A stretch of DNA of 58,123 nt, taken from Nitrospirota bacterium. GTDB lineage: Bacteria > JACPQY01. How positions within the stretch are numbered: the stretch's first letter is position 1; every line of letters begins with the position of its first letter. Where the stretch lies: positions 62,001 to 120,123 of the forward strand of contig JACPAV010000015.1 in NCBI GenBank assembly GCA_016180645.1, read 5' to 3'. Under the pieces are notes generated by a model. The model had not been told where the DNA came from. It searched no databases and was given only the letters and a program-made list of their open reading frames with translations. Of this stretch, positions 1-39,718 are shown one piece after another. The position numbers and the translations under genes are program-made.

Positions 1-3000
1 TCCCGGTTCAGCCGGATTCAGGACACCACTCCACCCCCCGCGCCGGACCCTGCGAAGCTCACTGTGACAATGAATCCACCTGGCGCCGGTGATGCCCTGA
101 GCGGGGCCGCGGGCGCGGTGGAGGCCTTGGCCGTGGTCCGTGTGTACAAGGATGGTCTCCTGACGACCTCTATCGGTTCCGGGCAGGCCACGGGCAATGG
201 ATCACTGATCGCGATTTCGATCGGTGACAATCAGGCGGATGCGAACAACAAGATTTACCTCATCGCCGTAGACAAGGCGGGCAACATGAGCCCGGTAACA
301 ACCATGACCAACGACATCATGCCTCCGGACACGTCTTTCGTAGGGGCGGGCTTGCCCGCCCTCCTGAGCAACTCCATTTCCGCAACATTCACCTTCACGT
401 CCACCGACACGACGGCGACTTTCCAGTGTTCCGTGGACAGCGCAGCCTATTCCACCTGCCTCAGTCCGCTCGTCCTGAGCGTGTCGAAGGACGGTCTCCA
501 CACCTTCGGCGTTCGCGCTGTAGATCAAGCCGGCAATCCGGACCCGACCCCCGCCTCCCACACCTGGACTCTGGATACGACGCCTCCGAACACGCTCTTC
601 GTAGGGGCGGGCTTGCCCGCCCTCCTGACCAATTCCACGTCCGCCTCGTTCTCCTTCACATCCAATGATACGGCTGCCACTTTCGCGTGCAGTCTGGATG
701 GTGCGACCTTCGCCTCCTGCACCTCGCCCAAGACGTACACCTCAATCCCGGACGGCCCTCATACCTTCCAAGTGAAAGCAACAGACCAGGCCGGCAACGA
801 GTCCGCTGCCGCCTCATACACGTGGACGATCAACACGATCCCACCCGACACGATACCCCCCACGTTTGCGGGCCTGGTCTCCGCCACGGCGGTCTCCACT
901 TCCCAGATTGACCTCACGTGGTCCCCTGGCTCCGACAATCTCAGTCCCGCCTCGGATATCACCTACGAAATCTGCCGGGCGACCGGCGCCGGTGCCTGCA
1001 CATCGACCTTCACCGCCACCTACATCACCTCCGCGGGTGCGACTTCTTACAGCGTCCCGAGTCTCGCGTCCGGCGTCCGCTATTATTTCGTCGCAAGAGC
1101 CAGAGACCAAGCCGGCAACATCGACGCCAACACAACCGAGAAATCTGCCCTCACATGGTCAAGCGGAGTAGTCCAGGCAATCAGTGCCCACCGAAGTTTC
1201 CACACCTGTGGGCTCCTTTCTGACGGAACGGTCAAATGCTGGGGAGTTAATTCTTTGGGTCAATGCGGAAACGGAGCGACAACGCTCCAGCAGACGACCC
1301 CTGTGGCTGTTAGCTCGCTTACGGGCGTTGTGACGCTGGGGGCTGGGGGTGGTGGTTCCGGCAGCGCGAATGGTCACACATGTGCGGTTCTGTCCGATGG
1401 CACGGTCAGGTGCTGGGGGGCGAACAGTGCTGGCCAACTGGGCGATGGGACAACGTCGCCTCGGACCACTCCCGTCGCTGTCAGTGGCCTCGCCGGTGCC
1501 GTCACTGTCGCGGGCGGATGGAAGCACACCTGTGCTGTCATTTCGGACGGTTCGGTCAAGTGCTGGGGGTACAACCTCCAAGGTCAGCTTGGGGACGGGA
1601 CGACAGCTAACGGATTGACTTCTGCGGCTGTCTCGTCGCTCACCGGTGCTGTTGCAGTCGGGGCAGGGAGCAGTCACACGTGCGCGCTGGTATCCGACAG
1701 CACAGTGAAATGCTGGGGATTCAATGGTTATGGTTCCCTGGGGGATGGAACGACAGCCGATAAGCTCACCCCCGTCGCGGTGTCGGCTCTTTCCGGCGTG
1801 ATGGCCTTAGCCATAGGGACTTTCCAGACCTGCGCGCTTCTTTCGGACGGGACGGTCAAATGCTGGGGACGCAATGAGTCTGGTCAGCTTGGGGACGGGA
1901 CAACAGTCAACACACCCACTCCCGTCGCGGTTAGCAATCTTACGGGGGCAACGGCCATAGGCGCAGGAAACATTTACACCTGCTCACTCGTTTCCGATGG
2001 GACGGTCAAATGCTGGGGGTCCAATAGCTTCGGTCAGCTCGGCGATGGAACGAATGTTGACAAGGCAACTCCTGTTGTCGTCAGCGGCCTTACAAGCGCA
2101 ATGGCCGTCACAGTTGGGTACCAGCACACCTGTTCGCTCCTATCGGACGGGACGCCCAAATGCTGGGGATACAACTTTCTCGGCCAACTAGGCGATGGCA
2201 CCACGGCGACCAAGCCGACGCCCGTCGCCGTGACCTCTCTCGCCGGCCCGCTCGGCGTGAAACTCCCGCGCCTCCACGAATCCACCGCCTCCGGCGCCCC
2301 CGCCCGCCCCTTCCGTGAAGGGATCCGTACGGGTGGCAATAGCATTTCAGGCAACACATGCGTACTGGTTTCAGATGGAACAGTGAGGTGCTGGGGATCC
2401 AACGCTGACGGGCAGCTTGGCGACGGAACAACCGTTGACAAGACAAGACCCGTAACGGTGTCTTCTCTGACCAGTGCAGTTGCAGTTGCCACCAGGGGCC
2501 CTTCCGTGTGTGCGCTGGCATCGGATGGCAGCATCAAGTGTTGGGGAAAGAACTCATCCGGCCAACTGGGAGACGGGACATCCGTGAGCAGAACTGTTCC
2601 CGTGGCGGTTTCCGGGCTGACCGCGGCTATCGCGATCAGCGCGGGAGGCTCTCATGCCTGCGCTCTAGCGTCCGACGGAACCGTCAAATGCTGGGGAAGC
2701 AATGCTGGAGGTCAACTCGGCGATGGGACAACGGTGAATTCACTCACGCCGTTGACCGTAACTGCGCTTGTGGATGCCATCGCTGTCAGTGCGGGGCTCA
2801 TCCACACGTGCGCGCTCCTCTCGGATGGTAGCGCCAAGTGCTGGGGGGATAACCCGTACGGTCAGCTTGGCGATGGAACGAATGTTGACAAGGCAACTCC
2901 TGTGCTGGTGTCCACACTAACTTCTTCGATCTCGCTCGCGTCAGGTGGTTCCCACACGTGCGCCTTGGGATCGGATGGGACCGTGAAATGCTGGGGAGCC

Positions 3001-3396
3001 AATGGCAATAATCAGCTTGGAGATGGGTCAACCGGTGCATCGGGAAGAACCCCCGTGACAGTTACTTCGCTGTCAAGCGTGGTTGCGATAACTGCCGGCG
3101 GCTCCATCTCGATAGCTGGCGACCATACATGCGCGGTGATCTCGGACGGAACAGTCAAGTGTTGGGGAGCGAATTGGAAAGGGCAGTTGGGTGACGGCAC
3201 GACGGCCTTTAGATCAACCCCCATAGTAATCTCCGGACTTTCGGGCGTTCTTGCCGTCAGCGCCGGCTTCGACCATACCTGCGGCCTTCTGGGCAACGGC
3301 TCCGTCTTGTGTTGGGGAAACAACAAGTACGGCTCGCTCGGCGACGGGACGACGGTGAATCGGTTGACGCCCGTCCCGGTGACCAACCTGCCGTGA
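1..3396 (+). CDS. Surface protein, 5'-partial: Ig-like (DTTPP-type) domains + FN3 + two 7-bladed RCC1/BLIP-II propellers
   Basis: Frame is open from base 1. 14 repeats of [19 protein letters not shown] split 7+7 by a linker; FN3-like segment (IDLTWS...YYFVARARD). Confidence 0.9.
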   Translation, partial: SRFSRIQDTTPPPAPDPAKLTVTMNPPGAGDALSGAAGAVEALAVVRVYKDGLLTTSIGSGQATGNGSLIAISIGDNQADANNKIYLIAVDKAGNMSPVTTMTNDIMPPDTSFVGAGLPALLSNSISATFTFTSTDTTATFQCSVDSAAYSTCLSPLVLSVSKDGLHTFGVRAVDQAGNPDPTPASHTWTLDTTPPNTLFVGAGLPALLTNSTSASFSFTSNDTAATFACSLDGATFASCTSPKTYTSIPDGPHTFQVKATDQAGNESAAASYTWTINTIPPDTIPPTFAGLVSATAVSTSQIDLTWSPGSDNLSPASDITYEICRATGAGACTSTFTATYITSAGATSYSVPSLASGVRYYFVARARDQAGNIDANTTEKSALTWSSGVVQAISAHRSFHTCGLLSDGTVKCWGVNSLGQCGNGATTLQQTTPVAVSSLTGVVTLGAGGGGSGSANGHTCAVLSDGTVRCWGANSAGQLGDGTTSPRTTPVAVSGLAGAVTVAGGWKHTCAVISDGSVKCWGYNLQGQLGDGTTANGLTSAAVSSLTGAVAVGAGSSHTCALVSDSTVKCWGFNGYGSLGDGTTADKLTPVAVSALSGVMALAIGTFQTCALLSDGTVKCWGRNESGQLGDGTTVNTPTPVAVSNLTGATAIGAGNIYTCSLVSDGTVKCWGSNSFGQLGDGTNVDKATPVVVSGLTSAMAVTVGYQHTCSLLSDGTPKCWGYNFLGQLGDGTTATKPTPVAVTSLAGPLGVKLPRLHESTASGAPARPFREGIRTGGNSISGNTCVLVSDGTVRCWGSNADGQLGDGTTVDKTRPVTVSSLTSAVAVATRGPSVCALASDGSIKCWGKNSSGQLGDGTSVSRTVPVAVSGLTAAIAISAGGSHACALASDGTVKCWGSNAGGQLGDGTTVNSLTPLTVTALVDAIAVSAGLIHTCALLSDGSAKCWGDNPYGQLGDGTNVDKATPVLVSTLTSSISLASGGSHTCALGSDGTVKCWGANGNNQLGDGSTGASGRTPVTVTSLSSVVAITAGGSISIAGDHTCAVISDGTVKCWGANWKGQLGDGTTAFRSTPIVISGLSGVLAVSAGFDHTCGLLGNGSVLCWGNNKYGSLGDGTTVNRLTPVPVTNLP
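340..361 (+). repeat. GTAG-type REP hairpin inside the CDS (second copy 601-622)
   Basis: GTAGGGGCGGGCTTGCCCGCCC twice, encoding VGAGLPA; 7-bp stem. Confidence 0.7.
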
Positions 3397-3483
3397 TGTA
3401 TGTGATCTCGGCACTCGATATTGCGAACCGCCCCGGTATCGAACCTACCGTAAGGGGTGATGGGGTGGGGATGAGACTCTTCG

Positions 3484-3538
3484 GTAGGCGCACCCTTCAC
3501 GGGTGCGTCCTCAAGCGCAGGCTGAAGCCTGCGGCTAC
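3484..3538. repeat. GTAG-type REP doublet (BIME-like)
   Basis: GTAG-hairpin...hairpin-CTAC; right unit nearly identical (reverse complement) to the unit at 39666. Confidence 0.8.
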
Positions 3539-3573
3539 CATGGGGTAGGGGGGTGGGGATGAGAGAAAAGTCG

Positions 3574-3828
3574 TCAGCGAGACGTCAAGCGCCGGATCGT
3601 CTCGATGTACTCGCCCGCAGCTCGAAGGTCCCGCTCAATGATCTTGGCCGAGATAACTTCCATGTATCCCGCCGCAACATGTAAGCGAGAATGAAAGTTC
3701 GCAAATTTCCCCTTTATGTCTTCCTTCCGGATTTCAGGGACACGCTTTTCCAAGTCGATCAGATCCTCCTCCTTGCGGTGCGTCCCCGCCGTAATCTTCT
3801 TGTGGAAGCGGTCCTGCCTCGTAGCCAT
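3574..3828 (-). pseudogene. Small ORF or fragment resembling the C-terminal part of DUF5618 / HEPN-like proteins
   Basis: FHSRLHVAAGY...AGEYIETI motif, recalled similarity only; flanked by REP doublets. Confidence 0.3.
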
Positions 3829-3848
3829 GTCGCACTCAACATCAATTC

Positions 3849-3900
3849 GTAGGGGCGCCCTCCAGGGCGCCCGATCGGGCGGCGTAGACGCCGCCCCTAC
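3849..3900. repeat. GTAG-type REP doublet
   Basis: GTAGGGGCGCCCTCCAGGGCGCCC...GGGCGGCGTAGACGCCGCCCCTAC. Confidence 0.8.
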
Positions 3901-3979
3901 GCGGAGGGAAACGTCCGGTGTAAAACCGGACGCTACCGGAACCTCCTTCACCGATGACGGCGAGGCGTCGCCTTGCGAC

Positions 3980-4150
3980 GCCGAGCAATACGTCGGCTTC
4001 ATCGCCGAGGACGTGCCGAACCTCGTCGCCACGAACGACCGCAAGGGCCTCTCCTCCATGGACCTCGTCGCCGTGCTCACGAAAGTCGTTCAAGAACAAC
4101 AAAGACAGATCGAAGAACTGCGAATGCGCATCGAGAAGGATGAACGCTGA
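3980..4150 (+). pseudogene. Orphan C-terminal fragment of a peptidase S74 / intramolecular chaperone domain
   Basis: GFIAEDVP...LVAVLTKVVQEQQRQIEEL signature with coiled-coil tail; no upstream SD..LK motif or passenger domain. Confidence 0.65.
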
Positions 4151-4379
4151 TCCCGAAGGAACCGCGGATCACCTCCCTTCCGCGGTGCGTAGGTCCCAAA
4201 CCGCAAGAGACGAACTGGGGCGCTTCTCGGAGAGCCCGAACGAGACCGCCTCCGACGCCATCCGATGGGAGACGCTCATGAACAACCTGGGGGCAGGCCT
4301 GACCGCGCGGACTGTACCCGCATGACAACGGCAAGATGGCATCGCTTCGGCGGACCCCTATGCGTGATATGCTACCACC

Positions 4380-5921
4380 GTGTGGCGTCGAGCACTTGCG
4401 GTTGGATTGATTCTCGCGGGGTGTGAGTCGGCCCAAACGGGGCCGCTGCCCGACGGGACCGAGTTGGAGATATCGGGTCAGCTTGTCGCCGGTTCGGCGG
4501 TGGAAGGAGTGCGTACCGGCGTGCGTGGCCTGACGGAAACGGAGCCGATCCCCGGCATCACAAGACCGGATGAAGGAGCAGGGACCTCACCGCGCCGGAC
4601 CGGTAGGGAAAAGCGGCAATCGAGCTTCGAGGCCGGACAGCCGCTGCCGGACTACGGCCTCTTCTGCGTCACTTTCGAAGAGAACCCCCGCTCAGGGAAG
4701 GGGGCGGCGAACAAGCAAGGCCGTTTTGAACTGAAGATACAGGCTGCGGGGATTCCATTCGGATGTTTCGTTGTTGATCCGAGCGGAAAACGCATCGCAG
4801 ACCTCTTCTTCGTCGGGGATAGACAACTCTCCTCCGGGGATCATGAGCTCACGGGCGCGATGGTCTTCGATCGCCATCAGAATCTGGGCCGGGTATGGGT
4901 TGATTTTTCCACCGCGGTTGCCTTGGCAGGCACTCCCCTCGAAACCGGTCCTTCTCCACCGGCCGAAGAAGATGCCTGGGATCCCACCGGCACGTGGGCG
5001 TTTGCTGAATGCCTCGACATCGCCGCAGACAAACCGTGCTCCGGCGCGGATCTCCTGCTCCACGCGGCGCTTTCCGCCACCTACCCCGCACTGTACTATC
5101 ATCGGATTGAGGGACGCGACGACTTGACCGGGAAACGTAGATACCTATTCGACATCTGGCACGACAAAGAGAGCTACGTCGCGTGCGGTCAAACGGAGGG
5201 GATGAGCCGCCAACAGGCCCGCGACCTTCACGGGTTGGAACTTGATCCCGAAGTGAATACGACCCCCTTCGGTTTTCTCGGCGAGCCGCCGGGGCCGAAC
5301 AGTTGGGATGCGAATGACTCCTGCGTGGGACCGACTGACCTGAAAGGAACGATCGGACGTTGCGTCTCCGTGACCGACCCCGGGTTACAGGCACTCTGCT
5401 ACAAAAGCTGCTGGCAGAACTACGACTCGCAAGGATTGGCCACGTGTCATCGGGCTCGGACGTGGAATGACGCGTACATACAGCGGCACCTGGAATCGCT
5501 GGAGAGAGGCGAGAGTCCCGTGTACGACCGAGCCGCCTATCTGACGCTGCTCCCTTTCCCTCAACGTTCCTTGATCTCGTCCCTGGGAAGCAATGCCTTG
5601 CACCCTGAGATGCGGTACCAGAACGGCCATACGTGGTCGATAGCCACATTATCGATCAATCCATCGTACTTCAAGGACACTTCGGGCCGTTACCGTCAGT
5701 GTGACATTGTTTTCAGCTTCCAGATGAATGCTTCGCGCTTATCCCCCGAGGATGCCCTGGCGACGGCCGTCGTGGGGGCCAACGTGTCCAACACTTCACC
5801 CGATTTTCAGTGGTGCCTCCAGTATGCGAGGCAAAGCCTTCCACAAATCGGCCTGAACCTTTCAGATCCCACCGGGACCGGTATTCGCTTCCGCACACGG
5901 CTCCGGCGGGTGAAGGAGTAG
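4380..5921 (+). CDS. Cys-rich hypothetical lipoprotein
   Basis: 513 aa ORF; MWRRALAVGLILAGC lipobox. Confidence 0.7.
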   Translation: MWRRALAVGLILAGCESAQTGPLPDGTELEISGQLVAGSAVEGVRTGVRGLTETEPIPGITRPDEGAGTSPRRTGREKRQSSFEAGQPLPDYGLFCVTFEENPRSGKGAANKQGRFELKIQAAGIPFGCFVVDPSGKRIADLFFVGDRQLSSGDHELTGAMVFDRHQNLGRVWVDFSTAVALAGTPLETGPSPPAEEDAWDPTGTWAFAECLDIAADKPCSGADLLLHAALSATYPALYYHRIEGRDDLTGKRRYLFDIWHDKESYVACGQTEGMSRQQARDLHGLELDPEVNTTPFGFLGEPPGPNSWDANDSCVGPTDLKGTIGRCVSVTDPGLQALCYKSCWQNYDSQGLATCHRARTWNDAYIQRHLESLERGESPVYDRAAYLTLLPFPQRSLISSLGSNALHPEMRYQNGHTWSIATLSINPSYFKDTSGRYRQCDIVFSFQMNASRLSPEDALATAVVGANVSNTSPDFQWCLQYARQSLPQIGLNLSDPTGTGIRFRTRLRRVKE

Positions 5922-24756: not shown

Positions 24757-27700
24757 TCAGGGGAGGTTTTGCACTTGGACGGGGGTGGATTTGTTGGTCG
24801 TTGTTCCGTCGCCGAGTTGGCCGTTGGCATTGTTGCCCCAGCATATCACTGTGCCGTCGGAAAAGAGGGAACAGGTGTGATATTCGCCCCCCGCGACGGC
24901 CACACCGCCCGAGAGGCCGCTCACGGCCACGGGGGTCGATTTGCTTGCCGCCGTCCCGTCCCCAAGCTGACCTTCGAGATTGCGCCCCCAGCATTTCACC
25001 GTGCCGTCGGAAAGAAGGGAACAGGTGTGAGATTTGCCCGCCGCGATGGCGACAGCCGCGCTCAGCGTGGACACAGCGACGGGGGTCGATTTGTCCGCCG
25101 TTGTCCCGTCCCCAAGCTGACCGGAGAAATTGTACCCCCAGCATTTCACCGTGCCATCGAAAAGAAGGGAACAGGTGTGATAGTAGCCCCCCGCCACGGC
25201 CACGCCGCCCGACAGGCTGCTCACGGCGACGGGGGTCGATTTGGGCGCCGCCGTCCCGTCCCCAAGCTGACCGTAGAGATTGTACCCCCAGCATTTGACC
25301 ATGCCGTCGGAAAGAAGGGAACAGGTGTGATAGTAGCCCCCCGCCACGGCCACACCGCCCGACAGGCTGCTCACGGCCACGGGGGTCGACTTGTCCGCGG
25401 TCGTCCCGTCCCCAAGCTGACCGTTGACATTGCGCCCCCAGCATTTCACCGTGCCGTCGGAGATGAGGGAACAGGTGTGAGAGTAGCCCCCCGCCACGGC
25501 CACGCCGCCCGACAGGCTGCTCACGGCCACGGGGGTCGATTTGTCCGCCGTCGTCCCGTCCCCAAGCTGACCGAAGTTATTGATCCCCCAGCATTTGACC
25601 GTGCCGTCGGAAAGAAGGGAACAGGTGTGATTGCCGAGGTGGGCGGTGAGGCCTTCGCGGAATGGCCGGGCGGGGGCGCCGGAGGCGGTGGATTCGTGGA
25701 GGCGGGGGAGTTTCACGCCCATTGGTCCGGCGGGCATCGAGACGGTTACGGGTGTGGACTTGTCGATGGTCGTCCCGTCCCCAAGCTGACCGAAGTTATT
25801 CCGCCCCCAGCATTTCACCGTGCCGTCGGAGATGAGGGAACAGGTGTGAGAGTCGCCCCCCGCCACGGCCACGCCGCCCGACAGGCTGCTCACGGCGACG
25901 GGGGTCGATTTGGGCGCCGTCGTCCCGTCCCCAAGCTGACCGTTGCTATTGATCCCCCAGCATTTCACCGTGCCGTCGGAAAGAAGGGAACAGGTGTGAT
26001 AGTAGCCCCCCGTAACGGCCACGCCGTTCGACAGGCTGCTCACGGCCACGGGGGTCGATTTGTCCGCCGTCGTCCCGTCCCCAAGCTCACCGTCGCCATT
26101 GTATCCCCAGCATTTCACTGTGCCGTCGGAAAGAAGGGAACAGGTGTGAAGGTAGCCCCCCGCGACGGCCACGCCGTTCGACAAGGAGCTCACGGTGAGC
26201 GGAGTGGCCCGATCGGTGGTGGTCCCGTCCCCAAGCTGACCGTTGCTATTGTACCCCCAGCATTTCACGGTGCCGTCGGAAAGAAGGGAACAGGTGTGAA
26301 GGTAGCCCCCCGACACGGCGACGCCGTTCGACAAGGAGGTCACGGTGACCGGAGTGGCCCGATCGGTGGTGGTCCCGTCCCCAAGCTCACCGTCGCCATT
26401 GAACCCCCAGCATTTCACCGTGCCGTCGGATAGGAGGGAACAGGTGTGATCGCCGCCCCCCGACACGGCGACGCCGTTCGACAAGGAGGTCACGGTGAGC
26501 GGAGTGGCCCGATCGGTGGTGGTCCCGTCCCCAAGCTGACCGAAGTTATTCCGCCCCCAGCATTTCACCGTGCCGTCGGAAAGAAGGGAACAGGTGTGTC
26601 GGTAGCCCCCCGCCACGGCGACGCCGTTCGACAAGGAGCTCACGGTGAGCGGAGTGGCCCGATCGGTGGTGGTCCCGTCCCCAAGCTGACCGTTGCTATT
26701 GTACCCCCAGCATTTCACTTCGCTTGAGGCGGACAGGCTACAGGTGTGATTGCAGAGGTGGGTGGTGACGGCCACGGCGGCGCCGGTGGTGGACCAGGTG
26801 AGGGCGGATTTTTCGGTGGTGTTGGTGTCTGAGTTGCCGGCCTCGTCCTTGGCCCGGACGACGTAGTAGTAACGGGTGGCCGCCGAGAGGCCGGTCGTGT
26901 CGTTGTAGCTTGTGGCGCCGGCGGTGGAGGTGTACGTCGCGGAAAACGCCGAGCATCCGCCCGAGGTGGCCGATCGACAGATGTCGTAGACAATGGCTCC
27001 GGAGGCGCTCACGGTGTCGGTCGCGGCCGACCAGGAGAGGTTGATTTGGGTTGTTGACACGGCCGTTGCGCTCGTGAGTCCGCCGAAGGTCGGCGCGGAC
27101 CAGTCGTTGGTCCACGTGATGTCCAAATTGTTCGCCGTGGAACTGCCGTTCCCGGCGGCATCCACGCAGGCCATGTATCGGGCGTAGGTGGCATCCGCGG
27201 CGGCGGCGCCGGTAAGCTGGCAGGCCGTTGCGCTCGCGCAGGCCGTCCCCGTCCCGCTGCTGTACGCGCTGTCGGTTGTGTACCACCGGCAGGCGGTGGT
27301 GCCGGAGACGGCATCCGTGCTGGTGAAGACGATGTCCGTATTGGAATCGTTCGCCGTGTCGTAGTACGTCGCCGCCGCGTCCCCCTCCACACTCGTCAGG
27401 GTGAGCGGCGGGGCGGTCCAGTCGTTCGTCCACGCAACGGCGACGTTGGTGGCCGCGTCGTTCGCGTTCCCGGCACTGTCAATGCAAGCGATGTATCGCG
27501 TGTAGGTCGTGCCCTCCGTGGCCGCCGCCGTGATGGTGCAGAGGCTTGTGGACGCGCAGGTGTTTGCCATCGAGCCGTAGGCGATGTCCGTGGTGTCCCA
27601 CTTGCACGTGGCGACGCCGGCGGAGTCGGTGGCGGAGATGGCGATGTCGGTGTTCGTGTCATTGACGGCGTCGTAGTACGTGGAGGCGGTATCCCCTTCG

Positions 27701-30255
27701 ACATTCGTGATCGAGATCGAGGGAGGGACCCAGTCGTTCGTTTTGGACGTTGAGCCGCCTTGGTTCCCGGCGGCGTCGGTGGCGGTGACGTAAACGGTTG
27801 CATTGGTATTGTCGCCGATGCTGATCGCATCGAAGACGCCGCTCGCGGAGGCCGTGCCCTGACCGAGAAGCGCGGTGAGAAGCGCGTCGGCCCATACTTT
27901 CACAGTAGATGAGGCTTCCACGGCACCCCCTGCTCCGCTCACCGTATCGTTTGTTCCAGGATTATTCTGTGAAATGGTGAGCTTCGCAGGGTCCGGGGCG
28001 GAGGGGGCGGTCGTGTCGAGGGTCCAGGTGTATGAAGTCGTGCCTGGGTTTCCGGCGGGATCGGTGGCTTGAACGGTGAAGGTGTAAGAGCCGTCGCCCT
28101 TCGACAGGCTCAGGGCGAGCGGGGAGGAGCAGGTTGCGTACGAACCGGCGGCGCCAGGTTGATCGAGTTTGCAGGCGAAGGAGCAAGAGGGCGGGGCAAG
28201 CCCCGCCCCTACATCGGAACAGGCAAGAGAGAAGGAGACGGAGACTTGATTACTGACGGCTGAAGGCTGAGAGCTGATCGCTACAGTGGGCGGTGTGAGG
28301 TCGATGGTCCAACTGTAGCCCGCGGGGGTCCCGTCGGCATTGCCGGCGGGGTCGAGGGCCCGCACACTGAACGTGTGTGCTCCCGCCGTGAGGGGTGAGA
28401 GGGTGAGGGGTGAGGCGCAAGAGGCATAGGAAGCAGAGTCCGCGGAGCACTCGAACGAGCACCCCCCACCCGAACCCTCCCCCGCGGGGGGGGAGGGGCA
28501 GGAAAAGGTGAATGAGCCCGAAGTCTGATTGCTGACCGCTGACGGCTGACTGCGGATCGCTGTTTCAGGCGGTGTCGTATCGACCGTCCACGTGAACGAG
28601 GCCGGTGTGGGATCCTTGTTGCCGGCGGGGTCTACGGCGTAGACGGAGAAGGTGTGCGACCCTTCGACGGCGCTCAGGGTGAGCTGACTTGTACAGGGAG
28701 AAGGGGTGCCGGTGTCGAGTTGGCAGTAGAAAGAGCAGGACTGAGGGCTGAGGGCCGAGGACTGAGCCGAAGAATCGGAGCACGAGAACCCAAAGGTTGC
28801 CGTGGTCTTGTTGCTGATAGCTGACGGCTGTACGCTGATGGCTGTCTCGGGCGGGATCGTGTCGGTGGAGGGGGGCACGACCGCCCAGGTGTAGACGATC
28901 GGGTTTGAGGTTTTTCCATCCGAGGCGGTACCGCGAACGGAAAGGGTGTGGTTTCCCGCGGCAAGGCCCGTGAAGGTAATGGGGCTTGGACAGGCCGCGA
29001 ACGGCCCGCCGTCAAGAGCACAACTGAGGAGGCAGGTTCCGTTGCAAGCGAAGGAGAATGAGGCCGTCGTGTCCGTGGCGGCTTTCGGGGTTTCCGTGAA
29101 GCTTACGCTCGGCGGATTCTCCGCGCTCGGGGTTGAAGTCCCTCCGGAATCGCCGGCAGGCAGTTTGACGAGGAAAACCGCGTTCGCCGCCGAACCGACG
29201 ACGCCCCCGCCGGTCTTGGGGCGGACCGCGAAGCTGTGCGCGCCATCGGCAAGGCCCTGCCAGACATAGGTGGCTTCGCAGTCCGCGAAAGCTCCTTTGT
29301 CGAGAGAGCACTCGAACGCGCACCCTGCCGCGCGGTCGCAGCCGAAAGTGAAGACCACCGAGGTTGTCGCCAAGGTTACCCCCGAGCCGCACTTGTCCGT
29401 TCCTGCCGCCACGCACTGGAAGTTCGCTATCGAGGGCGCGGAGAGGACGGCGGCATCGACCGGGAGCGCAACCTGGACGTTCTGCTTGATCTGGATTTCA
29501 GCGGCGAGATCCTTGGCCGCGCCCTCGAGTTGCGGCTTGAGAGCAGCGACGATCCTGGAAATCTCCTCTTCCGTCAGCGGCCGCGTGTCTTTCGTGGGGT
29601 CGATCCCGAGATCCGGGGCTTTTTCCATGGCGAACGCCTGGACGAGGTTGGGCAGGCCGGACTTGTTGTTGGAGGGCATCGCTACGTCGATGGGGTCGAT
29701 GGGGGCATCCTGTATCCGGCCTCCGCTCACCGCCACGGAGGTCTCTGCCTTCAGGAGCGATATTTCAGGGTGGCCGGGGAGAATGAGAACGACGACAAAC
29801 ACGTGCACCCCTTCGGAAAGCGCCAGGGGCAAGGTGAGTTCCGTGACGAAGGCAAGCGCGTTCGGGCTTCGGGGCTGCCTGCCGATCCTGTCTCCAGAAA
29901 GTTCTTGCCTGGGCGGCGCGCCTGGAACCGGTTCCGGTTCCCCTCCGATCGCTCTCCTTCCCGCGCGAACACCGCCCATTGCGCCCGAGAGGATCTCTCC
30001 TCGGACGCCTTGGCCCACCATCTCATCGTCCACGCTCACGTCCACGGTTGCCGCCCGCACGCCCTGAAGCATCGCCGCCTGCTCGGACGTGAGAGGAACG
30101 GCCACGGTGACATCGCGGGCGCTTTCGCCGGCGGGATCAACGGAAACTCTTTTCTTCTTCTTGGACTTCCCACACCCGAGAGGTCCACATATCGCAAGGA
30201 CGAGAAGCGCGAATACGATGGTCGGCCATCGGCGCGATCGGCCCTCTGCTCCCAT
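24757..30255 (-). CDS. Large lipoprotein: multiple Ig-like domains + FN3 + RCC1 propellers (7+6 blades)
   Basis: PLGC lipobox; DTTPP Ig-like repeats; 13 near-identical 150-bp RCC1 repeats. Confidence 0.9.
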
Positions 30256-30325
30256 CCGGCTGCGGGGATTGTACATCATGCTCACGGCCGATGACACTCG
30301 TCTTGCTCTTTCGTTCCGGGTCGCA

Positions 30326-30685
30326 TCATCTCGCGCTGAAGGCCGCGAACGCGAGCCACAGAAGGGCCCACGGACCGATCTCTCGGCCGAGAAACAAAAC
30401 ACCCTTGAATACGGTCTTGGTCGATCCTGTCATGCGATACCTCCTTTGCTCCATGAACCTGACGTTGAAATCATGCGCGATCCCGCCGGCCAACGGCCCG
30501 ACCGACTCCATCGGGACCTCATCGTCGTCAGGCAATGTGGTTGGGCCTCCATGGGAGCGATCGTGGCAGGCCATGCAATAGGGACCGTCTGAATAGCGCG
30601 GTTCACCCGGAGAAATCTCCCTTCCGCATTTGAGGCATGCGCACACCCAAGACTTCTGCTTCCTGTTTTCGAGACTCGGTTCCAC
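30326..30685 (-). CDS. Small protein with CxxC..CxxCH motif and a His-kinase H-box remnant; internal start at 30433 would give a 35-aa hydrophobic peptide
   Basis: GGAGG-GTG start; CLKC...[22 protein letters not shown] before ATG 30433. Confidence 0.4.
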
Positions 30686-30757
30686 GCCTCCCCCCTTTCG
30701 GTTATGTCTTTCCGTGTTGCTTGGTTGTTGACTTTCCATTGCACTTGTCTTGGAGAG

Positions 30758-30774
30758 AGCAACGGCCATGCCAG
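30758..30774 (-). promoter_or_regulatory. Sigma54 -24/-12 promoter
   Basis: CTGGCATGGCCGTTGCT matches TGGCA-N6-TTGC; divergent from a sigma54 activator gene. Confidence 0.65.
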
Positions 30775-31107
30775 CGGGCGAGGGATGACCGTCGGTCCAC
30801 CGAGAACGAGGTCGTGGCACGAAGCGTGATTTGCGAATGGAATTGCACATCTTGTTTCCGTGTGCCGGGGGCGTGGCTTCGGTCGCCGGACTGCGCCATT
30901 CCTGAGCGTGGGCCGGAAGGCGTTGTTGGAGAAGTGTCCCGACTCGTACCCATGTTGTGCCGAACCCCGTTGAAGGGATGGAGGAAGACGCCGACCGCGC
31001 GCTTTCGATTCAATTATAGATACATACAGTCCAGGACAGGCTCCGTCCGGAAAAAAGACGGCGCCGTATGGATTGAAAACGGCACCCGTTCCCGTAGAAT
31101 CGCGCGG

Positions 31108-34100
31108 ATGGGAGTCGTTGTGCTGGAGAGATTTGAAGTGCGCGAGATATTGGGGGAAGGACATTTCGGCAGGGTCCACCGCGCGTTCGACCGAGTGCTG
31201 AAGAAGGAGGTGGCCCTCAAGGAATTTTTTCCGGACCCGTCGGATTCAGGCGGGGAGTCGTCCAAGCGCGAAATGGAGTTCCTAGCGCACCTGAGCCATC
31301 CGGCGCTCGTCCGAGTCCACGATTTCCTGATCGACGAAAGTTCGGGGACCCACTATCTGACTCAGGATCTGGTCCGAGGAGAGAGGCTGTCGGACTTTCT
31401 ACTTGCCGCTGATTGGGAAGCCCGGCTGAACGTTTTCATCCAACTCCTACACGGCCTTGAGTACCTGCATCAGCGAGGGGTGATCCATCTGGACATCAAG
31501 CCCTCCAACGTGCTGGTGTCGATTCCGACGGCTCCGGGTCTTCCTGAGGCGCGGATCCTTGATTTCGGCGTCGCCGAGAGGATGGATCCTACCCGCCGGA
31601 GGGCGCTCATCACCGGAACGTTCCCCTACGTCGCGCCGGAGGTTGTGCGGGGCGATCCGGTGGACGGCCGCGCGGACCTTTACTCGTTGGCGCGGATCTA
31701 CTTCGAATCGTTGCGGCCGCGGCCTTTGCCGGCCGGAGATGGAGCTTCGGACCCCGCCGGTCGGGACGGGGACGATCTGGAAGCGATGATCCGTGAAACG
31801 CTCCGCCGAAAGGCGCCCGAGTTGGAGGATTTTCCCGAGGAGATTCCGCTCTACTTTAGGGAGATTCTTGTGTCGCTTCTCCAGCCCAATCCGCGCGGAC
31901 GGTTCTGGTCCGCCAACGAGGTGGTCCGGCGGATCAACATGCGGACGGGCCTGGCCTTCCCGCTTGAGCCGGGCCGCGTGCGGCTTCCCGACAAGACGAG
32001 CGCGATTCTCGCCGGCCGGACGGCGGAATTTGAGACTCTTTGCCGGTGGTTTGAACAACACCTCCAAGGGGCACGGGCGCTTTCATTTGCGGCCGTGTTC
32101 GGCAAACCGGAAACCGGCAAGAGCGCATTGCTGGACGAATTCCGTCGCTGGGCCGAGCTTCGGGAGATGGAGGTGATCAGTCTGCAACATCCCGATGACG
32201 GAGTGGGGGATCTTTTTCGACGAGCCGCAAAGGATTCCGACCTCGAATCGCTTCGGCCCTTCGCGCCGTTTCTCAAGAACGTCCTTCCCGGTCCCTTCGG
32301 AAATGCGCCGGACCCTCCCGTCATCGAGGCGAGTCCCGATCTCCAGCAGGCGCGCGCCTTCGACAAGTGGACGGAGGCCCTGCGCGTTTTGCTCGATCGT
32401 CGGCCCGTCGCCATCCTCGTGGACGATGCGCATCTGAAGCCCCCGCTTGCGGATCTTCTGCTCCGGCTCGTCCATCGATTACGCGCGCCGGGCGGGATCT
32501 CGGACGTTCCGGGCCCGGCAAAGACTTTCATCAGCGTTCACCCCCACCCTGACCCTCCCCCGTCGAGGGGGAGGGAGAAAGAGGGTGAGGCGCGCTCCTT
32601 CTTGTCCCTTCCCCCCTTGCGGGGGAAGGTGAGGATGGGGGGTGCTGAACGATTACAGACTTTCATTCTGTTCACGGCTGCGGCGGAGGGATTCATTCCG
32701 CCCCAGGCCGCGCCGGATTGGAGCCTCGGCTTGGCGGCCTGGACCAAGGGTCAGGCAACGGGTGTTCTTTTGCGGTTGCTTGGTGTTGACACCGTGCCGG
32801 AGTATTTGTTGGAGCGGCTCGTGGGCGCGACCGAAGGGGTTCCCGGTCTGTTCGTCGAGTGTGTGCGAAGAATGGCAAGCGACGTCCTCCAGCCCGGCGA
32901 AAACATGGAGGCCCAACTGGACGCGCTTGACCCGAGCAGGGTCGACGGCATTCTCGATGCGGGCGCATGGTACGGCGGAGAGATCAAGGCCCTGCCCGGT
33001 TCGGAACAGGACGTGCTGGCTTGGCTCGCCGTTGCCGCGGCGGAACTCCGTTCGGAGGATCTTGAACGCCTTGAGCCCTCCGTGGCCGGGAGTTCGGTTG
33101 CGTTGCTGCGTCGGCTGGAGAGTCTGGGTTGGGTACGATCGGGTCTGCATGGGTATCAGCTTGCCGGGGACCTCCGTCGGGCCGCGGTCGACCGAGCGCT
33201 TGAACCGGGCCGGCGCCAGGAAATGCATTTCCAGATTGCGCGGCGCTGGCGGGAACTGTCCCTGCATCATGCGCGAACGGGGCTTGGTCATGACGGGGCG
33301 GCTCTCGCGCAGGCGGGCCATTGCTTCCGGGCCGGGCGGGCGGAGACGGCGTTTGAGATCGCCGCTCCCGAACTTGCGTTGAGGCTGCGCCTGCACCAGC
33401 CGGAACCGGTCCTCCGGTTCTTGGAGGAGCATCGAGAAGCCGCCGGTCGCCTGCCCCCCGATCCTGGCCGGATGTATCGCAAGCTCCTTGCCGAGGCTTC
33501 CTTCCTCACCTCCAATTTCGCGGCCGCGGCCGCGACCTACCGGGACTTCGCAAGCCAGGGCCTTACGCCCGAAGAACGCGCGGAGTGCACGGCCGGGCTC
33601 GCCCGTTCGCTCCGCTTCGGGGGAAAGCTTGCGGAGGCCGCGGAGGTGATCGAAAGGTCCGGATCGGAGATCCGAGGCGATTCACCCTGGCGGCCGGAGC
33701 TGGACGCCCTGTATGCCGACATTCTCCTCGAACAGGCTCGATACCCGGAGGCGGCGGCCGTCTGTCGGCCCTACCTCGACGGAGGCAGACCCTGCGGGCC
33801 GGACGAAATTCTCGCGTTCCGGCACGTGCTGGCCAAGACGCATTTCTACCGACGCGAAACGGAGCAGGCGATCGCCCTCTTCAAGCAAAACAGCCAGGAG
33901 AGTCGGAGGTCCGGCAGGCTCGCTCGACATGCACTCTCTCTCAATTCACTTGGGGCCGCGTACCTTCTGGCCGGGGCGACCGACGCCGCCGTCGAATCGC
34001 TTCATGCGTGCTCGGTCCTAAGCCAGGAGATCGGCGATCTTCGCGGCATGGCTCTGGCGCATGTCAACCTCGGCGTCTCGTACCAGAAGACGGGCCGTTC

Positions 34101-36477
34101 CGAGCTGTCCGCCGAACACTATGAAAAGGCGCTCGCCATCTCCCGCGGGATCGGGGCCCGAACGGAGGTCGCGCGCATCTTGTACAACCTGGGCATGCTC
34201 CGTTGCGCGGTGGGCGATCTGGAAGGCGGCGAAGACGCCCTGGCTGAGGCCGCGTCCCTCTGCTCTGAATTGGGCATGTCCCATCTGGAGGCGAAGGTTT
34301 GTTTCGAACGGGCGGGTGGCCTCTTGCGACGCGGAGATCGAGCCCGCGCGCGGGCGGAGTGCGAGAAAGGCGAGGCGCTCTATGAAAAGCTCCGAATGCC
34401 GACGGAGCTGCTGGAGATGCGGCTCAAGCGGGCGCAGGTTGAACTGGAGGACGGCCGAGGGGACGAAGCCACGAAGATCATTGAAACCGCGGGAGAGGAG
34501 GCGAGTAAGTCACCCACGCCGTGGCTGCAAGCCCGCATCCTCTACCTGAAGGCCAGGCTCGCCGGCCGGCGCATCGACGTGGCGCGCGATTTGCTGGAAC
34601 GTTCGATGGTGAAATTGGAGTCTTCGGATCGAAAGGATGAGGATCTGAAGCGTCTTGTCATGGAGGAGTTGGGCAGGCTGTCTTCCCCCGGCGGCGCGAG
34701 CCGAGAGCCGCCGGAAGCGGGAGGAGCCGCGCCCGAGCCGACCGGGGAGCGAAGAGCGGGAGGACCGGAGTCGGAGGAGCATGGGGAAACAACGCGCATT
34801 CCTCTCCAACGGAGAAGGGCGGACACCCTGGGTCTGACGCTCTTGGAAATCGCGCGCAAGATCAGCTCCCCGTTGAATGCGGAGGGCGTGCTGGTGGAAA
34901 TCGTGGATTCACTTCTCGCCTTCACGGAGGCCGATCGCGGGTTCCTGTTGCTGATGGAGAAAGGACATCTGGACGTGCGGGTGGCCCGATCGAGGGACAG
35001 GAAGGACATCCTGGACCCGGCCGAGAAGTTCAGCCTGACGGTAGCCGAGGAGGCCTTGAAGGAGCGGCAACCGGTCGTCTCCATGGACGCCGCGAGCGAT
35101 CCTCGGTTCAAGGACTCCGCCAGCATCTACCAGCTTCAACTGAGGTCCGTCGTCGGCATCCCATTCTTCGTGGGCCGGGAGCCTTTGGGGGCGCTGTACC
35201 TCGACACCCAGGAGGGGGAGGGACGGTTCGGCGAGGCCGATTTTCCGCTGCTCTCTTCCCTCGGCGAACTGGCCGCCGTGGCCATCCACAAGGCCGATCT
35301 CACGGCTCAGCATATTCGTGACCAGCGTGAGCTTAGGAAGACCGTCCGGGAACTGCGGGAAGCCAAGAACAGGGTGGACGACCTGGCCCGGAGTCTCGAA
35401 GATTCCAACCGCAAACTCGAGGACAAGGTTGCGACGCAGGAGGGTGAATTGGAGGAAGCCCGGGTTCGCCTGACGGCCTTGATCCACCAGGAGCAACCCA
35501 AGTATGGGTACGACCGAATCATCGGTTCAAGTCGGGCCCTCCGGGACGTTCTCCTCATGGTGGACCGCGCCGTTGAGAGCCGCGTACCCGTCTTGATCGA
35601 GGGCGAAAGTGGAACCGGCAAGGAGCTGGTCGCGCGCGCCATTCATTTCAATTCTTCCAGGAAGGAGAAGCCCTTTGTCCCCATCAACTGCGGGGCGGTG
35701 CCGTATGACTTGTTCGAATCCGAGTTGTTTGGACACGTAAAGGGCGCCTTCACGGGGGCGGATCGCGACAAGCCGGGCCTGATCGAAGTGGCGGCCGGAG
35801 GAACCCTGTTCCTAGATGAGATCGGGGAGATGCCCCTGGGGCTCCAGGTGAAGATGCTCAGAGTTCTCCAAGAAAGCGCGGTGCGGCGCATCGGAGGCGT
35901 GGCGGAGGTTCCGGTCGACGTGCGCATCGTGGCTGCGTCGAACAGGGACCTGAAGACGCTCGTCTCCGAAAAGAAAGTCCGCGAAGACTTCTATTATCGC
36001 CTGAGCGTGTACCGTATCACGGTCCCGCCGCTTGGCCGGCGGAAGGAGGATATTCCACCCTTGGCGGAGCACTTCTTGAAACGAATTGCCGAGGAAGAGG
36101 GCAGGCCGGTGAAAAGCATCTCCCAACAGGCCTTGTCTCTTCTGGCGGGTTTCCATTGGCCCGGCAATGTGCGGGAGTTGGAGAACGCCGTGAGGAATGC
36201 CGCCGTGGCTTGCCGCTCGAACCGGATCGACGTTCAGGATTTGCGGCACAAGCCCGAGCTGTTCGGGGAGTCCGCCTTGATTTCAGCCTCCGGAAATCGA
36301 AGGCTCCGGGATCTTCTCCGAGAAGTTCAGAAGAAAGCGATTGTGGAGGCTTTGCGAAGAAGGGACGGCAACATCACCCTGGCGGCTCAAGACCTCGGTG
36401 TGGGCCGATCTCTCCTTTCCCTTTGGGTGAAGAAGTTTCGACTCAAGTCAAAGGCCGCCGCGGAAAGGACGGGTTAG
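31108..36477 (+). CDS. Ser/Thr kinase + AAA + TPR + GAF + sigma54 activator + Fis HTH fusion
   Basis: LGEGHFG, HLDIKPSN, DFG, APE; GKPETGKS; TPRs; GESGTGKE, GAFTGA, WPGNVRELEN. Confidence 0.93.
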   Translation: MGVVVLERFEVREILGEGHFGRVHRAFDRVLKKEVALKEFFPDPSDSGGESSKREMEFLAHLSHPALVRVHDFLIDESSGTHYLTQDLVRGERLSDFLLAADWEARLNVFIQLLHGLEYLHQRGVIHLDIKPSNVLVSIPTAPGLPEARILDFGVAERMDPTRRRALITGTFPYVAPEVVRGDPVDGRADLYSLARIYFESLRPRPLPAGDGASDPAGRDGDDLEAMIRETLRRKAPELEDFPEEIPLYFREILVSLLQPNPRGRFWSANEVVRRINMRTGLAFPLEPGRVRLPDKTSAILAGRTAEFETLCRWFEQHLQGARALSFAAVFGKPETGKSALLDEFRRWAELREMEVISLQHPDDGVGDLFRRAAKDSDLESLRPFAPFLKNVLPGPFGNAPDPPVIEASPDLQQARAFDKWTEALRVLLDRRPVAILVDDAHLKPPLADLLLRLVHRLRAPGGISDVPGPAKTFISVHPHPDPPPSRGREKEGEARSFLSLPPLRGKVRMGGAERLQTFILFTAAAEGFIPPQAAPDWSLGLAAWTKGQATGVLLRLLGVDTVPEYLLERLVGATEGVPGLFVECVRRMASDVLQPGENMEAQLDALDPSRVDGILDAGAWYGGEIKALPGSEQDVLAWLAVAAAELRSEDLERLEPSVAGSSVALLRRLESLGWVRSGLHGYQLAGDLRRAAVDRALEPGRRQEMHFQIARRWRELSLHHARTGLGHDGAALAQAGHCFRAGRAETAFEIAAPELALRLRLHQPEPVLRFLEEHREAAGRLPPDPGRMYRKLLAEASFLTSNFAAAAATYRDFASQGLTPEERAECTAGLARSLRFGGKLAEAAEVIERSGSEIRGDSPWRPELDALYADILLEQARYPEAAAVCRPYLDGGRPCGPDEILAFRHVLAKTHFYRRETEQAIALFKQNSQESRRSGRLARHALSLNSLGAAYLLAGATDAAVESLHACSVLSQEIGDLRGMALAHVNLGVSYQKTGRSELSAEHYEKALAISRGIGARTEVARILYNLGMLRCAVGDLEGGEDALAEAASLCSELGMSHLEAKVCFERAGGLLRRGDRARARAECEKGEALYEKLRMPTELLEMRLKRAQVELEDGRGDEATKIIETAGEEASKSPTPWLQARILYLKARLAGRRIDVARDLLERSMVKLESSDRKDEDLKRLVMEELGRLSSPGGASREPPEAGGAAPEPTGERRAGGPESEEHGETTRIPLQRRRADTLGLTLLEIARKISSPLNAEGVLVEIVDSLLAFTEADRGFLLLMEKGHLDVRVARSRDRKDILDPAEKFSLTVAEEALKERQPVVSMDAASDPRFKDSASIYQLQLRSVVGIPFFVGREPLGALYLDTQEGEGRFGEADFPLLSSLGELAAVAIHKADLTAQHIRDQRELRKTVRELREAKNRVDDLARSLEDSNRKLEDKVATQEGELEEARVRLTALIHQEQPKYGYDRIIGSSRALRDVLLMVDRAVESRVPVLIEGESGTGKELVARAIHFNSSRKEKPFVPINCGAVPYDLFESELFGHVKGAFTGADRDKPGLIEVAAGGTLFLDEIGEMPLGLQVKMLRVLQESAVRRIGGVAEVPVDVRIVAASNRDLKTLVSEKKVREDFYYRLSVYRITVPPLGRRKEDIPPLAEHFLKRIAEEEGRPVKSISQQALSLLAGFHWPGNVRELENAVRNAAVACRSNRIDVQDLRHKPELFGESALISASGNRRLRDLLREVQKKAIVEALRRRDGNITLAAQDLGVGRSLLSLWVKKFRLKSKAAAERTG
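32539..32644. repeat. Palindromic element inserted in frame in the kinase-activator gene
   Basis: CACCCCCACCCTGACCCTCCCCC..GGGGGAGGG ... CCCTTCCCCC..GGGGGAAGGTGAGGATGGGGGGTG; encodes HPHPDPPPSRGRE...PPLRGKVRMGG. Confidence 0.8.
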
Positions 36478-39622: not shown

Positions 39623-39647
39623 AGCTGTCAGCAATCAGCCGTCAGCC
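39623..39647. repeat. Heptamer tandem repeat (GCNNTCA); similar tract at 45664-45694
   Basis: AGCTGTCAGCAATCAGCCGTCAGC. Confidence 0.6.
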
Positions 39648-39665
39648 TCCGGTGCAGGGGATGTG

Positions 39666-39718
39666 GTAGCCGCAGCCTTCAGGCTGCGTCCGGGACGCGG
39701 GCTGAAGCCCGCGCCTAC
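39666..39718. repeat. GTAG-type REP doublet
   Basis: GTAGCCGCAGCCTTCAGGCTGCG...CGCGGGCTGAAGCCCGCGCCTAC. Confidence 0.8.

Follow-up and report, generated by a model that had tools for sequence, protein, structure and literature searches.

Parts of the immunoglobulin (Ig)-like domains of a large predicted envelope protein in a Nitrospirota bacterium are encoded by DNA of dispersed repeats. The gene lies at 24757..30402 of the window, by which we mean the whole stretch of 58,123 nt analyzed here (contig JACPAV010000015.1 of assembly GCA_016180645.1). An earlier note had placed nine repeat-like tracts in this gene, all in frame, between 28094 and 28845. The coding sequence and the nine tracts are present at those coordinates, and the claim proved largely real, in that four repeat families, spread through the genome and present between genes as well, account for seven of the nine tracts. 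These families are a GTAG-tagged repetitive extragenic palindrome (REP) hairpin, arrays of the heptamer GCNNTCA (three tracts), a hairpin arm that we call PFD, a name coined from one translation of the arm (two variants), and a C5/G5 palindrome. The tracts probably, if by no wide measure, arose as dispersed repeats were inserted in frame, or copied in by short-patch replacement, time and again, with selection keeping the events that left frame and fold intact.

The genome is a metagenome assembly (4.72 Mb, 65 contigs, 97% completeness), and genes were called with a crude codon-usage caller of our own (3299 genes, 83.7% coding). The open reading frame (ORF) 24757..30402 is intact, and its 5646 bp encode a signal-like N-terminus with cysteines, including a putative lipobox, followed by Ig-like, fn3-like and RCC1 parts. 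In all, the 1881-residue protein holds five Cys-containing Ig-like domains, an fn3-like region and 13 RCC1 repeats. Pfam matches were Big_13 (44.6 bits, cut-off 27) and, for the RCC1 families (E ≤ 1e-113), RCC1, RCC1_2 and WD40_RLD. The stretch 28094-28845 corresponds to residues 520-770 and to three of the domain copies, D2, D3 and D4. The gene, these copies (matched with a profile hidden Markov model, HMM) and the nine tracts are as follows.

24757..30402, minus strand: gene for the 1881-residue envelope protein (ORF; coding score 334.5 in our own gene caller)
28012..28296, minus strand: Ig-like domain copy D4, residues ~703-797 (HMM match 2.3e-23)
28297..28575, minus strand: Ig-like domain copy D3 (HMM match 4.4e-34)
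28576..28857, minus strand: Ig-like domain copy D2 (HMM match 1e-31)
28094..28122, plus strand: T1, PFD hairpin arm (core 28098-28114), strand E and turn of D4, antisense reading PLALSLSKG
28189..28212, minus strand: T2, GTAG REP hairpin, Cys-bracketed B-C turn of D4, reading VGAGLAPP
28247..28281, minus strand: T3a, five GCNNTCA units (the last GTAATCA), strand A of D4, 12 residues
28526..28560, minus strand: T3b, five GCNNTCA units (the first imperfect), strand A of D3, 12 residues
28813..28844, minus strand: T3c, heptamer array with one unit broken, strand A of D2, 11 residues
28388..28416, minus strand: T4, SPLTLSPLT tract, no genome-wide repeat family
28464..28497, minus strand: T5, C5/G5 palindrome with GGGTGGGG flank, filling the B-C turn of D3, 12 residues
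28658..28682, plus strand: T6, variant PFD arm, one base longer (core 28661-28678), reading LTLSAVEG
28736..28770, minus strand: T7, B-C turn of D2, 11 residues, two perfect GCNNTCA units

Each tract was compared with 2000-5000 synonymous recodings drawn from genome codon usage, scoring either exact 12-mers shared with intergenic DNA or heptamer-fixed positions matched. For T1, exact 12-mers matched intergenic DNA 47 times, whereas 2000 recodings averaged 3.5 and a fraction of 0.0015 of them did as well; T6 scored 52 where recodings averaged 4.4, and none of 2000 equaled it. T3a, T3b and T3c had 38, 56 and 25 matches, reached by fractions of 0.0035, 0.0005 and 0.02 of recodings, whose means for T1, T3a-c and T6 ranged from 3.5 to 7.0. 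All three heptamer tracts matched 23 heptamer-fixed positions, which a fraction of at most 0.0002 of recodings reached; T3a and T3b contain 4 perfect units each, and no structure is predicted for the T3 tracts (z 0.21). A sliding scan of the whole gene returned the same five tracts, T1, T3a, T3b, T3c and T6, as its top windows.

T2, a single REP, consists of GTAG followed by a perfect 9-bp stem with a loop of 2-4 nt (-10.9 kcal/mol, z -3.1). Only 0.18% of 5000 recodings reached a stem of this length; exact 12-mers of T2 showed no intergenic enrichment (7 versus 5.2 in recodings). T5 (tract 28462-28498) and its flank match, over ~40 nt, a palindrome family with 22 loci; its 12-mer test was weak (0.08), and it folded no better than shuffles (z 0.08). 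T1 and T6, which the earlier note had taken for separate families, are two variants of one PFD family. The variants adjoin each other in intergenic DNA, and T6 is read in a different frame from T1. The remaining two tracts did not stand as repeats of their own. T4 (GTGAGGG) scored 0.14 in the 12-mer test and 0.35 in the heptamer test, has no genome family and is not supported, and T7 (CTGAGGG), likewise without a family of its own, was marginal in the heptamer test (0.057) and is possibly a decayed GCNNTCA array.

The families are abundant outside genes. GTAG followed by a perfect hairpin occurs at 894 sites genome-wide; with stems of at least 8 bp there are 594, of which 453 are intergenic, 24 at gene edges and 117 in called genes, and the exact T2 variant has one copy. 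Two inverted REPs form doublets of 53-57 nt at 78 places, 45 of them intergenic and 14 inside Ig-domain genes; at the doublet borders, YCG precedes GTAG and C follows CTAC. Arrays of at least three GCNNTCA units number 70 (46 intergenic, 10 edge, 14 coding), compared with 0-10 for 12 permuted motifs. The PFD arm has 34 matches at up to 4 mismatches, 11 of them intergenic. The C5/G5 palindrome with its GGGTGGGG flank has 22 loci, and the oriented palindrome pattern 19 matches (6 intergenic, 1 edge, 4 in Ig genes, 8 in other coding DNA). Densities per Mb in Ig genes, other coding DNA and intergenic DNA were 188, 19.8 and 598 for REPs, 43.7, 1.1 and 60.7 for heptamer arrays, 96, 4.0 and 25 for PFD arms, and 17.5, 2.1 and 7.9 for the palindrome.

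Intergenic REPs at 3484, 3849, 18196 and 39666 and heptamers at 39623 and 45664, cited in the earlier note, are all present in the window; the REP at 3849 lies inside a weak 145-residue ORF of our gene caller. One locus joins two of the families.

39624..39718, plus strand: heptamer array followed by a REP doublet, intergenic, between genes ending at 39617 and 39854

A Rfam search with seven intergenic repeat loci (E up to 1) gave five matches, all far below gathering scores. Seven profile matches to Y1_Tnp (PF01797), predicted to be transposases of the REP-associated tyrosine transposase (RAYT) or IS200 type, exceeded the cut-off in the genome, and the match at C25:35110-35430 has REPs with the T2 stem base on both sides. 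By eye, intergenic GCNNTCA arrays often form inverted pairs tens of bases apart (for example C3:315845-315941 and C19:4581-4691) and often begin a few bases from a stop codon.

An HMM built from D1-D4 with one iteration found 143 copies of a PKD/Big_13-like domain in 48 predicted paralogous genes, 228.7 kb in total. The domain is a Big_13/PKD-like bacterial Ig domain, as judged from a profile score above cut-off and a predicted Ig-like beta sandwich. An AlphaFold model of D4 from 41 aligned copies, the rows including two distant loci from Actinomycetes and Planctomycete records, had a predicted local distance difference test score of 91.1 and seven strands, with strand ranges 4-9, 19-27, 39-46, 60-63, 69-78 and 84-93. 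Its best fold match in Foldseek was a PKD domain (template modeling score 0.73); a Foldseek search of the model against PDB gave no match with E ≤ 0.001. The repeats occupy three fixed places in the domain, which we denote by HMM columns: P1 (columns 4-19) is strand A, following a PPxT linker; P2 (columns 22-36) is the Cys-bracketed B-C turn; and P3 (columns 45-61) is strand E plus the following turn. In the D4 model the REP-coded stretch coincides with a low-confidence B-C loop, residues 28-38, between Cys26 and Cys38. The T2-coded peptide is thus predicted to sit at a surface-exposed, structurally tolerant site of an intact protein.

The B-C turn shows the repeats most directly. Its minimal state is C-x4-C, and a Cys-bracketed loop of 6-40 residues is present in 28 of 137 copies. 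Six of these loops, none in the gene 24757..30402, carry a complete 56-nt REP doublet, equal to 22 codons between the two Cys codons. All six share one orientation and one frame, and they match 22-35 intergenic copies over at least 50 nt. The six doublets are 86-97% identical to one another in DNA (mean 0.91), compared with 48-68% DNA identity, 34-62% residue identity and 0.47 codon identity in the remainder of the same domains. Other Cys loops hold single REPs of several sub-families, or the palindrome. Contents change between close relatives: the nearest paralogs of D2, ranked by identity outside the loop, contain a REP doublet (0.79), no loop (0.75), a single REP (0.74) and the palindrome (0.69). 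With relatedness among domains taken as nearest-neighbor identity, the state was shared with the nearest neighbor in 4 of 26 cases at P2 (shuffled mean 1.4) and 3 of 18 at P3 (1.3). The claim of dispersed repeats at homologous codon positions is thereby borne out, the same loop holding a REP, a REP doublet, the palindrome or nothing.

The two strands are written by the same families in other copies. Coding heptamer arrays lie in Ig genes in 10 of 14 cases, and eight of these share one frame, reading AIS.QPSA.SNQ directly after PPxT; across the Ig genes, heptamer arrays encode strand A in all three frames. Of the PFD arms within Ig genes, 21 of 22 are read antisense, all of these in one frame. 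They encode LVLSLSKDG-type strands or, with one extra base, 12-residue strands, giving two frames. Coding copies of the PFD arm retain its stem: flank pair 1 is Watson-Crick in 21 of 22, compared with 11 with shuffled partners. Every combination of P1 and P3 states occurs. A sibling of T2, one bp shorter, is found at seven places in paralogs, all in frame as VGAGLPA, six in strand A and one in the B-C turn; a further copy reads AGAGLPA. Two of the sibling REPs and a PFD arm fall in a neighboring paralog that ends within the window.

340..361, plus strand: sibling REP, reading VGAGLPA, strand A of the neighboring paralog (gene end 3396)
601..622, plus strand: another sibling REP, in the frame of the first, following domain of that paralog
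474..490, minus strand: PFD arm in the paralog ending at 3396, reading LVLSVSKDG

This paralog is the last of four consecutive large Ig-domain genes upstream of the window (C10:45371-65396), and it runs into window positions 1-3396 with its two in-frame REPs (340, 601) and PFD arm (474). The first of the four contains an in-frame REP doublet and two single REPs, and its strand-E region is expanded by a REP cluster. On another contig (C65:2-5959), a 1986-residue Ig-domain ORF has tandem REPs that read as interdomain linker peptides (SRRGASLDAPS-type units). A second, GTGGYCA-like heptamer type codes for a longer strand A (ALSAVSGQ...) at C63:20477-25450 and C44:103-4026; these variants are 7 residues, or three units, longer than the usual form.

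Codon choice separates the repeat segments from the rest of the domain. Among 11 heptamer copies chosen only by the peptide AI[SR]xQPSxxSx, third bases fixed by the heptamer were T in 10 of 11 (genome T3 13%), A in 10 of 11, and C in 10 or 11 of 11, with all 11 at three of the four C positions. Third bases at NN positions varied, for example G6/T3/C2. The Ser codon at column 12 was TCA in 19 of 32 copies (6% genome-wide), and AGC was used in 25 of 39 copies at column 8 and 23 of 34 at column 15 (22% genome-wide); Ser at column 47 used all six codons. We also grouped copies by peptide alone and measured the share of same-residue sites with the same codon. Identity inside versus outside the segment was 0.63 versus 0.47 for QPS copies (n = 22), 0.83 versus 0.47 for GAGLPA copies (n = 6), 0.81 versus 0.47 for LS[LV]SK[DG] copies (n = 7), and 0.89 versus 0.50 for LS.VEG copies (n = 7). 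The expectation from codon usage is 0.34-0.46, and the remaining 98 copies were at expectation inside the segments (0.38, 0.29). Synonymous sites of the paralogs are therefore saturated outside the repeat-coded stretches and, as the earlier note had supposed they might, follow the repeats within them.

To place the tracts among relatives, we searched 30 other genomes, one of which is of the same family and another genus (84% complete). This sister-genus genome gave 43 matches to D2-D4. In its ortholog the D4 loop is missing (a gap of 7 codons, with Ser where the first Cys would stand), and the D3 loop has, in the same 12 codons, a slightly imperfect GTAG REP in place of the palindrome found here. 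The PFD tract of D4 is identical to the ortholog at 32 of 33 nt. In codons read by eye, the ortholog keeps 18 of 25 fixed positions of the heptamer register versus 24 of 25 in D4. Elsewhere in that genome, paralogs have a REP in frame in the loop, and a heptamer array falls within an Ig gene. A reversed heptamer control pattern was as frequent in that genome as the pattern itself (35 versus 25 matches), which hints at another heptamer family there.

Homologs from other organisms were also compared, using the best 120 of 1677 matches at E ≤ 1e-10 (1034-3292 residues). Among their 2117 full domain copies there was no expanded Cys loop, and nine C-x4-C turns all belonged to one protein. No LSLSKD or LS.VEG strand and no VGAG was present in this set; QPS was found in 17. 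The same peptides encoded in other genomes would have spoken against a repeat origin, and the loop and strand-E peptides occurred in 0 of these 2117 copies. Compared in this way, both are lineage-specific.

The underlying DNA was checked in four sequencing runs from one study, labeled groundwater metagenome, using assembled contigs and unitigs, which drop rare variants. Overlapping unitigs of all four runs agree with the window and cross T2 and T5 without difference. At the PFD, T6 and T7 tracts the unitigs end, which is expected of repeats that exceed the word size. The PFD arm (window 28064-28145) had a summed contig depth of 1811-3151 in run X2, compared with ~44 alongside, so that other, more abundant members of this groundwater community must commonly carry it. 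The only differences found in the four runs were G>A at 28735, in contigs making up over half of the summed depth of every run, and a one-base gap at 28400, inside T4, in one low-depth contig of run X4.

We propose that elements would enter the domains by insertion or by short-patch replacement templated by dispersed copies, through RAYT action or gene conversion. A resident element would make its site a target for the next, and selection would retain only events that keep frame and fold. The tolerated places would be the disulfide-bracketed B-C turn and two edge strands, and the outcome would be lineage-specific variety in exposed parts of envelope proteins; a benefit to the cell through surface variety is possible. 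The case appears strong for the B-C turn, because a complete mobile unit, young compared with its host domains, lies at one codon in six domains and because families swap between close relatives. Strands A and E look more like overwriting or molding toward the repeat consensus than plain insertion.

Several observations weigh against this proposal. Strand-A and strand-E peptides lie near the family consensus, and domain length is kept. The P1 state was shared with the nearest neighbor in 9 of 23 cases (shuffled mean 2.4, maximum 9); strand-A states thus carry a signal of descent, and the heptamer pattern is partly inherited. The ortholog already has a partial heptamer register, and a pairwise synonymous test against it was non-significant (15/24 inside versus 72/132 outside, p 0.51). 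The sister genome is REP-poor, with 6 and 0 matches at its 84% completeness. Outside these Ig genes neither the exact T2 variant nor its sibling is found. Paralogs are non-independent samples, which overstates p-values. No pair of an empty and a filled site with target duplication was found, nor any event within a population, and contigs of the four runs contained no unit-number, frame or length variants at the arrays.

A more novel reading holds that the three islands are designated landing or exchange sites, at which members of the genome's repeat pool are directed to a resident element by RAYT or by conversion, the B-C turn and the two edge strands acting as repeat-templated hypervariable cassettes; we regard this as rather unlikely. 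If it were true, the islands would be the only stretches long enough for recombination among the saturated paralogs, and they would represent a new route for envelope-protein diversification and a natural assay of REPIN target choice.

The main rival, to which we give an equally low probability, is that a small number of ancient insertions were passed on as domains and genes duplicated and that their DNA has been kept by selection on the nucleic acid itself. Proposed roles are sites for binding proteins, pause or stability elements, and partners of repeat-derived RNAs in mRNA or DNA. Such selection would account for DNA-level conservation against a saturated background, for the stem retained in coding PFD copies (21/22 versus 11 shuffled), for the single orientation and frame of the six loop doublets, for strand-A states that partly follow relatedness, and for the near-identity of the D4 PFD tract to its sister-genus ortholog (32/33 nt). 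It fits poorly with the different families held in the same loop by closest paralogs and ortholog, and with the same REP at two domain positions, strand A and the B-C turn. Nor do the heptamer tracts have a predicted structure, the intergenic copies match no Rfam family, and there is no known binding factor or RNA.

Programmed diversification or switching is less probable still. Here, heptamer slippage would turn genes on and off or lengthen strand A, and the loop would be an epitope cassette site, with exposed epitopes varied under selection from phages, predators or surfaces. The variety does affect exposed stretches of envelope proteins, variants of strand A differ in length by 7 residues, equal to three heptamers, and all pairings of strand-A and strand-E states exist. 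However, the array units are non-identical, differing at NN positions, which would lower slippage, and the contigs of the four runs, which drop rare variants, show no change of unit number or frame at the arrays. No dedicated recombinase adjoins the genes, and the same families occur in frame in unrelated genes, such as the kinase-like gene next to this one (32542-32575), which fits a passive process. That paralogy, low-complexity peptides, chance or misassembly explain the tracts is very improbable and largely refuted for seven of the nine: T4 and T7 behave so, T5 folds no better than shuffles and unitigs break at PFD, T6 and T7, but against this stand the recoding controls, the matches of at least 50 nt to intergenic REP doublets, the codon tests with peptide-defined groups, the agreement of unitigs with the window, and the in-loop, in-frame REP and the heptamer array in an Ig gene of the sister genome.

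The neighboring gene just mentioned (30637..36477, plus strand) encodes 1946 residues and is Ser/Thr-kinase- and sigma-54-activator-like. It contains an in-frame C5/G5 palindrome at 32542-32575, whose reading on the other strand is HPHPDPPPSRGREKE; in-frame repeats are therefore not limited to Ig-domain genes. Within the envelope protein itself, one RCC1 blade (25633-25740, minus strand, residues ~1555-1590) has ~35 unrelated residues in place of a 12-residue stretch of the other blades. This substitution was at first suspected to be a repeat insertion; its DNA contains no hairpin or known repeat motif.

Repeats in frame within genes have precedents. Rickettsia palindromic elements (RPEs), reportedly described by Ogata and colleagues in 2000, are said to be inserted in frame in protein-coding genes and tolerated there. 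They resemble the present elements as selfish palindromic repeats that are in frame and tolerated in proteins. REPIN-RAYT systems, an account of which is attributed to Nunvar (2010), Ton-Hoang (2012) and Bertels and Rainey (2011), are reportedly extragenic as far as the REPINs are concerned. The genome studied here similarly has REP doublets of 53-57 nt in 78 copies and Y1 transposase genes with REPs alongside; unlike REPINs, 14 of the 78 doublets are inside Ig-domain genes, six of them at one codon position.

The closest published case is that of intragenic GTAG- and CGTC-tagged REPs, known in several species as singles, dimers and clusters in frame (Di Nocera et al. 2013, PMC3733652). The earlier note's statements that in-frame insertions usually involve one family each and that the process may be undescribed were accordingly overstated. 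As here, the REPs in the available part of that report combine GTAG with a GC-rich hairpin, are mostly extragenic, accompany RAYT genes in the genome, and include copies wholly inside ORFs that encode 20-30 or more residues. The decorated proteins discussed there are unrelated, many of them repair and replication enzymes, and the sites are scattered; here elements of several repeat families recur at three set codon positions of a single domain family, and one repeat family replaces another between close paralogs and in an ortholog. Short RPEs are CGTC-tagged according to the same text (PMC3733652). They belong to another repeat class, and the portions consulted of PMC3733652 and PMC3184786 describe no fixed landing position for them in a repeated domain.

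Heptameric simple repeats, with four units preferred, have been described near gene ends (Rehm et al. 2015, PMC4692102). As far as the available text of that paper goes, those arrays resemble ours in their 7-nt unit, mostly non-coding location and frequent closeness to a stop codon (here by eye). They differ in that our unit, GCNNTCA, is not G-rich, so that no quadruplex is expected, and in that our arrays also encode Ig-like strand A. Fusions of repeats and ORFs have been reviewed, with BRE inserts inside ~9 genes as an example, and REPs are noted there as targets or hot spots for further insertion, including insertion sequences (Delihas 2011, PMC3184786). The accessible part of this review likewise covers small repeats fused in frame within protein genes, and in that part several families do not share one structural site of a multi-copy domain. 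In a literature search of incomplete coverage that excluded supplements, we found no description of several repeat families at fixed structural sites of one multi-copy domain. What is new relative to known in-frame REPs is thus the multi-family, fixed-position turnover.

The mechanisms by which REPs and REPINs disseminate are poorly understood (PMC8266576). The six young-looking doublets at one codon of six old, diverged domains bear on how REPs and REPINs select their landing sites. Together with the family swap at an orthologous loop, they offer a natural system for testing target choice, replacement and conversion. For annotation, odd lineage-specific peptides in such proteins may be translated repeats. 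In this bacterium, non-coding selfish DNA has apparently become predicted protein sequence, in beta strands as well as loops, across a large family of envelope proteins.

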